The notes under the pieces are model-generated. The model ran no database searches, was not told the origin of the DNA, and saw nothing but the letters and a program-made list of their open reading frames with translations. The translations under genes and the position numbers were made by a program. Below, in pieces: positions 9,854 through 10,306 of a stretch of 25,801 bases of DNA. The DNA is from a virus. Its lineage: Duplodnaviria > Heunggongvirae > Uroviricota > Caudoviricetes. Position 1 is the stretch's first letter. Every line of letters begins with the position of its first letter. Location of the stretch: the IMG/VR virus record IMGVR_UViG_2693429554_000019; one strand, written 5' to 3'.

Positions 9854-10306
9854 ATGTTACAACAACTGGCCTGTGAGTTTTTTATTGAGTTTTCACGATA
9901 TGAATATTGCCTTAAGGCATGTGGGATTTTAATCAATGGAGGCCATTTAAAAGCTGACTGGAATGGATATTCCGATCAGGTGCGTGACGTTATCGAAAAC
10001 CCGTCTACCCCTAAACTTAATGAAGCGATTCATTACTTCGAAGAGCATCCCCCTAAAAAACAGATTTACGGTGAAAAAGGGATCATGTGGTCGGAAAAAC
10101 TACCGAGTTCCCGGCACCGGGCTGAACTAATTTTACTGCTGGTCTGTCGAGTAAGAAACAATCTCTTTCACGGCGGAAAATTCAATGGTAATTGGTTTGA
10201 ACCGGAACGCAGTGAGCAGTTAATCCGGCACGCCCTCACCATCCTACGGGCCTGTGCGGAGAAACACGCCGGAGTGAAAGATGCCTATGAGAACAAACAC
10301 TTCTGA
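9854..10306 (+). CDS. Hypothetical protein (150 aa) with HEPN-like Rx4H motif; candidate RNase/abortive-infection effector
   Basis: Motif RNNLFH in LILLLVCRVRNNLFHGG after a hydrophobic helix-like stretch. GGAG 6 nt upstream of ATG 9854 (alternative in-frame ATG at 9842). Perfect TATAAT hexamer at 9785-9790. A hand-counted 60-nt sample is about 38% GC. Confidence 0.45.
   Translation: MLQQLACEFFIEFSRYEYCLKACGILINGGHLKADWNGYSDQVRDVIENPSTPKLNEAIHYFEEHPPKKQIYGEKGIMWSEKLPSSRHRAELILLLVCRVRNNLFHGGKFNGNWFEPERSEQLIRHALTILRACAEKHAGVKDAYENKHF

Follow-up and report, generated by a model that had tools for sequence, protein, structure and literature searches.

The 150-aa protein encoded at positions 9854–10306 of the window, by which we mean the whole analysed stretch of 25 801 nucleotides from the Caudoviricetes record IMGVR_UViG_2693429554_000019, is very probably a stand-alone member of the HEPN family. 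This assignment is based on its motifs and predicted fold, with all database matches being sub-threshold. Our preferred reading, to which we give a probability of about 55 %, is that the protein would serve as a partner-less HEPN RNase and abortive-infection effector, analogous to but not homologous with HepS. The family to which it belongs has no model in Pfam, NCBIfam or PADLOC, carries the label 'unknown function' in PHROGs and, in individual loci, is repeatedly placed in defence contexts.

Conserved motifs and predicted fold

The original prediction of a 150-aa protein corresponds to a genuine ORF, which runs on the plus strand from an ATG at 9854 to a TGA at 10304–10306 (150 aa plus stop) and encodes a product identical to RefSeq WP_001560595.1, annotated with the same start. 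An alternative in-frame ATG at 9842 would add four residues to give 154 aa; the start at 9854 is favoured because a GGAG lies 6 nt before it. The protein belongs to phrog_19013 ('unknown function') in PHROGs, and every source names it 'hypothetical protein'. Scans against Pfam, NCBIfam and PADLOC gave no match even at E ≤ 1, and no paper on it came up when the literature was searched with the protein accession. The features of the gene are as follows.

9844–9847, plus strand: Shine–Dalgarno sequence GGAG, 6 nt 5′ of the ATG at 9854, read from the sequence
9854–10306, plus strand: coding sequence of the HEPN-like protein, 150 aa (WP_001560595.1; phrog_19013)
9902–9916, plus strand: Ex3[KR] motif E17-Y-C-L-K21 in helix 1 (motif definition, PMC3710099)
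10049–10093, plus strand: codons P66-P-K-K-Q70 through W79, family-specific beta-hairpin insert between helices 2 and 3, from conservation and AlphaFold2 strands
10154–10171, plus strand: Rx4H motif R101-N-N-L-F-H106, predicted catalytic site from conservation, aligned to Csx1-Crn2 R401/N402/H406

The RNNLFH motif from which the HEPN idea started is present as described: ELILLLVCRVRNNLFHGG was found in the 150-aa protein, with R101 encoded at 10154–10156 and H106 at 10169–10171. It had been cautioned that one short motif is weak evidence by itself, and this caution was justified, since the chance level of Rx4H in the window's own open frames of at least 90 aa is 0.43 per 150 aa; the stricter form R[NDH]x3H is expected 0.07 times per 150 aa in the same frames. 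The single motif becomes significant because it is conserved across 134 diverse homologues with 23–51 % identity to the window protein (alignment A4). Within this set R101 and N102 were each retained in 133 sequences, and N103 and H106 in 132. The residues flanking H106 were also conserved (G107 in 133/134, G108 in 121/134, K109 in 132/134 and R119 in 129/134), as were W36 (132/134) and, within the insert, P67 (133/134), Q70 (128/134) and W79 (123/134).

A second HEPN hallmark, overlooked in the original prediction, was identified near the N-terminus as E17-x3-K21, with E17 present in all 134 homologues and K21 in 132. A polar residue following the R is typical of catalytic HEPN domains. The pattern Rx4–6H with a polar N, D or H directly after the R appears here as R101-N102-x3-H106, and the upstream acidic residue within Ex3[KR] as E17, paired with K21. 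Ex3[KR] is the second conserved element of HEPN domains, and RNx3H and Ex3K are their defining signatures (PMC3710099).

An AlphaFold2 model of the protein, built on 96 homologues, had a pLDDT of 88.7 and a pTM of 0.87 and consisted of a helical bundle with a beta-hairpin insert. Long helices were predicted at residues 2–22 (carrying Ex3K), 53–64, 89–105 and 117–137, with short helices at 36–48 and a C-terminal helix at 139–147. The hairpin at 69–80 (strands 69–73 and 76–80) bears the conserved PPKKQ...W. The HEPN fold is a four-helix up-down bundle of two alpha-hairpins; characteristically, helices 2 and 3 are separated by an insert (PMC3710099). The motif had been described as lying at the start of a helix; in the model it is instead at the C-terminal end of helix 89–105 and runs into a lower-confidence loop, which is followed by helix 117–137. 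The idea was to be dropped if structure prediction lacked a helical bundle or if the R and H were not conserved among homologues; a helical bundle was predicted and both residues are near-invariant (133/134 and 132/134), and neither result refuted it.

Comparison with known structures and profiles gave sub-threshold hints. The Foldseek check that had been proposed for a HEPN fold returned neither HEPN nor any significant match in the PDB or BFVD: the sole return from the PDB was ribosomal protein S7 at a TM of ~0.2, which is meaningless, and BFVD gave no match. When the PDB was searched with the family profile, the top four matches were all chains of Csx1-Crn2 (E 0.07–0.12, sub-threshold), and R101/N102/H106 fell on R401/N402/H406 in a segment of the form helix-RNxxxHGG-loop-helix. 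These three residues are the published catalytic residues of the HEPN RNase Csx1-Crn2 (PMC11317161). Among Pfam models, HEPN_Apea was the only recurring relevant hint, again sub-threshold (E 0.03–0.05; 96 and then 10 further members scanned), and one UniRef entry in the family is named 'Apea-like HEPN domain-containing protein'. Alignment by hhalign of the family profile to two single HEPN-annotated neighbour proteins (Abi_C and PF05168) was not significant. Against established HEPN families and structures no profile match reached significance, the best being these HEPN_Apea and Csx1-Crn2 matches, and the HEPN-like reading is supported by the near-invariant R and H and by E17-x3-K21.

Prophage setting, family spread and neighbouring genes

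The window is a P2-like prophage in which the HEPN-like gene occupies the interval between gpA and gpQ. This interval is a documented P2 anti-phage hotspot and holds old and tin in P2 itself (PMC9122126). The GC content of the cargo is 40–45 %, whereas that of the P2 core genes is 52–59 %. The relevant features are as follows.

5083–7497: gpA-like replication protein
7778–8083: DinI-like gene
8380–9657: IS110-family transposase
9684–11379: mobile two-gene cassette: HEPN-like gene and convergent 241-aa gene, each with the region 5′ of it, and the hairpins; boundaries from blastn
9785–9790, plus strand: TATAAT, possible −10 element, in the sequence and inside the cassette
10413–10457, plus strand: hairpin with 15-nt arms at 10413–10427 and 10434–10448, 6-nt gap, then T5 at 10453–10457, from sequence and folding
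10471–10499, plus strand: second hairpin (10471–10495) into T7 at 10493–10499, intrinsic-terminator-like, overlapping the 3′ end of the convergent gene
10485–11210, minus strand: convergent 241-aa gene, phrog_31894 ('unknown function'), which co-travels with the HEPN-like gene and is dispensable
11394–12203, opposite strand to the HEPN-like gene: 269-aa gene
13128–14156, minus strand: portal gpQ, followed by terminase and capsid genes

It was found by blastn that the segment 9684–11379 recurs with the same boundaries and 99.6 % identity in Escherichia coli UPEC132 and SCU-101. In UPEC132 it is located in a P2 prophage between the tail-fibre assembly gene G and the sheath gene FI, and in SCU-101 in a non-P2 island. 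A longer segment, 9684–12389 with three genes, is present in a P2 remnant in NCTC9100, and 9684–11289 lies after gpA in Mangrovibacter. The left edge at 9684 is therefore common to four unrelated settings. We considered whether these genes are the three-gene domain-less system reported from the P2 hotspot by Rousset 2022, which is unsupported, with no PADLOC match for the three proteins; scans of the three neighbours of the 150-aa protein against Pfam, NCBIfam and PADLOC also gave no match. The HEPN sequence was absent from the portions of the Rousset 2022 supplementary tables that were searched.

The original prediction had viewed the gene as an independent unit with its own promoter-like region and a strong terminator hairpin. 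The hairpin placed at 10414–10459 proved to be real, with the arms and T5 listed above, and a second hairpin was found beyond it; the 101-nt segment with both folds at −38.1 kcal/mol (z = −3.4). The perfect TATAAT is likewise present at 9785–9790 and always accompanies the gene because it is inside the cassette, but no −35 match was found at 16–18 nt from it and the consensus scan did not call it, returning 4 promoter-like sites in all, fewer than the 6.9 in shuffles. The notion of an independent unit thus holds in that the hairpins and 170 bp of upstream sequence accompany the gene wherever it moves, which is consistent with a self-contained expression unit with a putative promoter, and falters in that the TATAAT has no −35 at normal spacing. 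For an inverted repeat across the start codon, folding was no more stable than that of shuffled sequence (z = +1.1). We also rejected the idea that the cassette encodes an RNA antitoxin or a known RNA element, since it contains no tandem repeats and gave no Rfam match at E ≤ 1.

The family is large and broadly distributed. There were 625 homologues in a 90 %-clustered database, and a profile search recovered 1,993 clusters at 50 % identity, with E ≤ 1e-10 for 1,486. Nearly all members are stand-alone proteins of 150–170 aa, most are chromosomal, and they are spread over many bacterial phyla and one archaeon. The gene itself is present in only 12 of 5,426 complete E. coli genomes, and 38 of 2.9 million IMG/VR viral contigs carry a relative. 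Divergent phage-borne members (27–30 % identity) retain the R, N, H, E and K intact and occupy a fixed place inside tail or baseplate modules in two phage groups, on at least 13 viral contigs. Such members could have a different role, an observation that weighs against defence as the function of the family.

Direct neighbours identified by PADLOC included short pAgo (three hits), type IV REase (three hits), components of type I, II and III R-M systems, Drt8, HEC-05 and AbiEii. Spacing was often tight: a type III R-M locus had the order mod–HEPN–res with gaps of 2 and 18 nt, the HEPN gene overlapped hsdR by 4 nt in a Methanothrix genome and an Abi_C gene by 4 nt elsewhere, and in three Rhodobacteraceae loci there was a 1-nt overlap with the stop codon of short pAgo, itself located after a DUF4365-APAZ gene. 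In separate loci the HEPN gene follows AbiEii-WYL, a GHKL-Hypoth_Ymh protein or a prophage CI repressor, and one relative is fused to an Mrr_cat nuclease. Recurrent sites were the P2 gpA–gpQ hotspot, the P2 G–FI locus and the P4 int locus. Some homologues are found among housekeeping genes (thioredoxin, a chorismate-binding enzyme and T2SS protein F), which is at odds with a uniform defence role.

To search for a partner gene, a scan with one genome per species gave 254 loci, of which 80 were fetched and 74 yielded the HEPN gene. The flanking ORFs of these 74 loci were clustered all-against-all; the ORFs came from a crude longest-ORF caller, and overlaps are perhaps overestimated. No neighbour family recurred in more than 6 of the 74 loci or at a fixed position, and no Pfam family occurred in more than 2 of 139 immediate neighbours. 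The neighbouring antitoxin or immunity gene that the original prediction had suggested looking for in homologous loci was therefore not seen, with no recurring partner across the 74. Neighbours also differed among seven hand-inspected loci of 50–60 %-identical homologues. They comprised an integrase gene and Hachiman, with the gene between them in a P4-like satellite; an HNH-like protein and a type ISP enzyme in a Pseudomonas island; IetAS-like AAA and S8 genes; a PF05168 HEPN protein; and small uncharacterised genes with Abi_C. The possibility that neighbours of ~240–260 aa form one hidden partner family was rejected, as they are mutually unrelated by BLASTP.

Proposed function and alternative readings

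For the 150-aa protein we infer RNase activity, oligomerisation, latency with a trigger, and phage protection, the RNase identity following from the invariance of the catalytic residues. In the HEPN RNases that have been studied, two Rx4H motifs pair at a dimer interface to form one composite metal-independent site (PMC11317161, PMC3710099). By analogy, the protein would be a minimal single-domain HEPN and metal-independent RNase with an active site of R101/N102/H106 aided by E17/K21, and a homo-oligomer would bring two Rx4H motifs together for RNA cutting. The lysogen would make the protein in a latent form, the gene being a self-contained piece of cargo that brings both its upstream region and its terminator hairpins. 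A phage-derived cue would then switch it on, and the activated protein would cleave tRNA or another RNA and so stop phage production. Speculatively, the trigger might be sensed by the family-specific W36/PPKKQ/W79 beta-hairpin region. Given the lack of both antitoxin and sensor domain, one of two things must hold: the protein is latent until its motifs are re-aligned by a cue, or its choice of substrate is very narrow. A 150-aa RNase made constitutively would need some way to stay harmless, which is a point against the reading given here.

One alternative is that the protein is the toxin of a two-gene toxin–antitoxin or two-component defence system with the convergent 241-aa gene, given that in E. 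coli, Mangrovibacter and Pantoea the two travel together in a single 1.7-kb cassette. This pairing is largely refuted and we consider it very improbable. In SCU-101, where the identical HEPN protein WP_001560595.1 persists, a frameshift cuts the product of the 241-aa gene to 143 aa, and a truncated 143-aa form is present on 233 contigs. Rahnella and Pectobacterium carry homologues of this gene (54–70 % identity) with no HEPN gene nearby, and Table S5 of Rousset 2022 gives 10 loci in which it is the sole entry at the P2 hotspot. Its homologues form just 10 clusters versus ~2,000 for the HEPN family, none of the other 73 HEPN loci contained the 241-aa gene, and its convergent orientation is atypical for a toxin–antitoxin pair. 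The frameshift beside an intact HEPN gene, the homologues without a HEPN neighbour and the lone listing led us to reject it as an antitoxin or obligatory partner. With no neighbour family above 6/74 loci, the original suggestion that the protein is standalone is supported. An unlikely alternative is that the protein is an accessory or back-up effector, an RNase held inactive by, or activated through, adjacent R-M, pAgo or Abi proteins rather than an autonomous one. PrrC and EcoprrI provide a precedent for such a guard model. The Mrr_cat fusion would fit this explanation, as would spacing to diverse defence genes that is tight or suggests translational coupling, and the established theme of HEPN proteins embedded in R-M operons (PMC3710099). 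However, the neighbours are mutually unrelated, so no single protein–protein interface could be conserved, and conservation in the family is concentrated on the catalytic motifs and one insert. Moreover, the genes in the window and in UPEC132 have no R-M, pAgo or Abi neighbour, the cassette has its own flanks, and the overlaps counted in favour come from the crude ORF caller and may be overestimated.

A different possibility is that the protein serves the phage or mobile element, through counter-defence, host takeover, superinfection control or regulation, or that it resembles HEPN proteins but binds RNA or nucleotides without catalysis. The fixed tail or baseplate position of the divergent members in two phage groups and the lack of a PADLOC match for the family point in this direction, and non-catalytic HEPN domains that act as binders do occur (PMC3710099). 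Nevertheless, R, N, H, E and K are kept even in phage-borne members, which is the pattern of a catalytic HEPN; most members are chromosomal, in defence neighbourhoods and across many phyla and one archaeon; and viral relatives are confined to the 38 contigs noted above, which makes this explanation improbable. More ambitious, and put forward tentatively as a rather doubtful proposal, is the view that the family constitutes a universal plug-in RNase, a single gene dropped into unrelated defence operons and into phage and satellite hotspots. The operons meant are type I and III R-M, short pAgo with DUF4365-APAZ, AbiE and Abi_C. A shared phage-derived cue, either a peptide or a nucleic acid, would be caught by the W36/PPKKQ/W79 hairpin and would re-align two Rx4H motifs, and the family would represent a second, independently evolved solo-HEPN sensor-effector with a trigger differing from that of HepS.

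If the preferred reading of a partner-less abortive-infection RNase is true, a large, taxonomically broad and unannotated family would join the single-gene anti-phage nucleases. It would provide a second case, sequence-unrelated to HepS, in which a bare HEPN domain is at once the sensor of infection and the executor of the response, and would bear on how a 150-aa RNase with neither sensor nor antitoxin stays harmless until infection. The small size of the protein would make it an attractive scaffold for studying and engineering HEPN activation, and the family would account for part of the 'dark' cargo in P2 and P4 hotspots.

Comparison with known HEPN systems

Csx1-Crn2 (PDB 8y7f), of the Csx1/Csm6 group, is the best sequence-profile match of the family in the PDB. 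The resemblance is limited to an E value of 0.07, and unlike Csx1-Crn2 the 150-aa protein lacks CARF and HTH domains and is not associated with CRISPR. PrrC and RloC are HEPN RNases in R-M operons, as are some family members (loci L088 and L091), but they possess a large N-terminal ABC-ATPase, whereas the 150-aa protein is the HEPN core alone in a single domain.

ApeA (PF18739) is the sole HEPN Pfam model touched by family members; as a HEPN system it consists of a single gene and occurs inside R-M operons (PMC3710099). The best member scored 15.2 bits against a gathering cut-off of 24.4, and the window protein had no match. The ~300-aa beta-rich N-terminal domain of ApeA is also missing from the 150-aa protein, which had no PADLOC match. 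The HepT/MntA type VII toxin–antitoxin systems (PDB 7ae2, 8xdj and 5yep) differ in that no MNT nucleotidyltransferase gene lies beside the 150-aa family, with no nucleotidyltransferase family occurring more than once among the 139 immediate neighbours. The AMPylated tyrosine of RX4HXY is missing from the 150-aa protein (RNNLFH-G-G-K), and there is no significant sequence similarity between the two.

The closest proposed parallel is HepS ('HEPN Solo'), which the Gifsy-1 prophage of Salmonella Typhimurium encodes as a single partner-less HEPN protein and which is made constitutively as an inactive tetramer. A peptide from the phage tail-tip protein J joins a beta-sheet and opens the tetramer, after which tRNA anticodon loops are cleaved (PMC13043305). 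The 150-aa protein is not a HepS homologue, because PDB 9OIK, which is contained in the searched PDB copy, was not found by either family profile at E ≤ 10. This structure was the only route of comparison with HepS, as Gifsy-1 of strain LT2 (NC_010392) gave no R100/H105 candidate. In other respects the two are alike. The description of HepS as a single HEPN with no conserved partner, frequently on prophages, is matched here by the absence of a partner and by the placement as prophage and satellite cargo, and both are single small HEPN proteins. Rx4H is at nearly the same position in each, R100–H105 in HepS and R101–H106 in the 150-aa protein, and HepS binds its trigger via a beta-sheet while the 150-aa family has a conserved beta-hairpin insert. 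A solo HEPN abortive-infection nuclease on a prophage is, as HepS demonstrates, already a known kind of system.

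Genes accompanying the HEPN cassette in the P2 hotspot

The HEPN cassette (9684-11379) shares the gpA-gpQ interval, the P2 anti-phage hotspot, with a transposase gene and further cargo.

8380-9657, plus strand: IS110-family transposase gene (domains DEDD_Tnp_IS110 and Transposase_20)
10485-11210, minus strand: 241-aa protein gene (phrog_31894, labelled 'unknown function' in PHROGs), convergent with the HEPN-like gene and part of the cassette
11394-12203, minus strand: 269-aa tryptophan-rich protein gene
12789-13082, plus strand: 97-aa ORF (phrog_12676, labelled 'unknown function' in PHROGs)

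The left boundary of the cassette at 9684 lies 27 bp beyond the end of the IS110-family transposase gene, placing the edge at approximately 9683/9684. The element was absent from all four other contexts of the cassette (UPEC132, SCU-101, NCTC9100 and Mangrovibacter). It may have inserted beside the cassette, or it may have aided the entry of the cassette into the hotspot.

For the 241-aa protein, no match was found in Pfam, NCBIfam or PADLOC, and its homologues formed only 10 clusters, all from Enterobacterales. Truncated forms of 143, 145, 84 and 56 aa were common, being present on hundreds of contigs. The gene by itself corresponds to arrangement #166 of the P2 hotspot, with 10 loci (Rousset 2022). 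It was also observed that in a Rahnella P2-like prophage (L020, 1930-4370) a homologue of this gene occupies a single gpA-gpQ hotspot together with a DprA-like and PRTase gene pair, a type of system validated by Rousset 2022.

The 269-aa protein had no match in Pfam, NCBIfam, PADLOC or PHROGs, and its gene is listed as arrangement #167 in the P2 hotspot table of Rousset 2022. The gene was far more common than the HEPN cassette and its mobility was independent of it: of 236 complete E. coli genomes with a match, approximately 224 carried the gene without the cassette, among them Nissle 1917 and clone D. The 97-aa ORF, located between the 269-aa gene and the portal gene gpQ, is further uncharacterized P2 hotspot cargo.

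Divergent family members in phage structural modules

Divergent homologues of the HEPN-like gene were present in phages (L018, L019 and L123-L139), at 27-30 % identity and with the catalytic residues intact.

L018 4923-5435: divergent member, Escherichia phage vB_EcoM-683R1
L019 4896-5414: divergent member, Klebsiella phage ST101-KPC2phi6.1

Their position within tail or baseplate gene modules was constant across two phage genome groups and at least 13 IMG/VR contigs, an unusual location for a defence gene.

Family members beside and within defence systems

In Enterobacter and Pectobacterium (L009, 217-4884; L014, 1190-5860), an IetAS-like pair of AAA ATPase and S8 peptidase genes precedes two further genes, one a conserved gene of 70 aa and the other encoding a 243-aa multi-pass membrane protein, all immediately upstream of the HEPN-family gene. 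This set may represent a four-gene IetAS variant. Two family proteins were fusions: in P0132 (349 aa) the HEPN-like domain follows an Mrr_cat restriction-endonuclease domain (E 2e-20) at the N-terminus, and P0137 (337 aa) joins the HEPN-like domain to an uncharacterized N-terminal domain of approximately 180 aa.

Other members were embedded in operons. In L039 (3198-6871), and likewise in L046 and L042 (Roseovarius, Gemmobacter), the order is DUF4365-APAZ, short pAgo and the HEPN-family gene. At its start the HEPN-family gene overlaps the stop codon of pAgo, and the uncharacterized 147-aa gene that comes next overlaps the HEPN-family gene by 11 nt. The family member may here be an accessory RNase of a SPARDA-like system. 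In a Pyrinomonadaceae MAG (L088, 3959-9024) the mod and res genes of a type III restriction-modification system flank the member, the gaps being 2 and 18 nt, and in an archaeal Methanothrix MAG (L091, 920-4668) there is a 4-nt overlap between the member and the start of a type I hsdR gene. This restriction-modification-embedded arrangement resembles that of PrrC.
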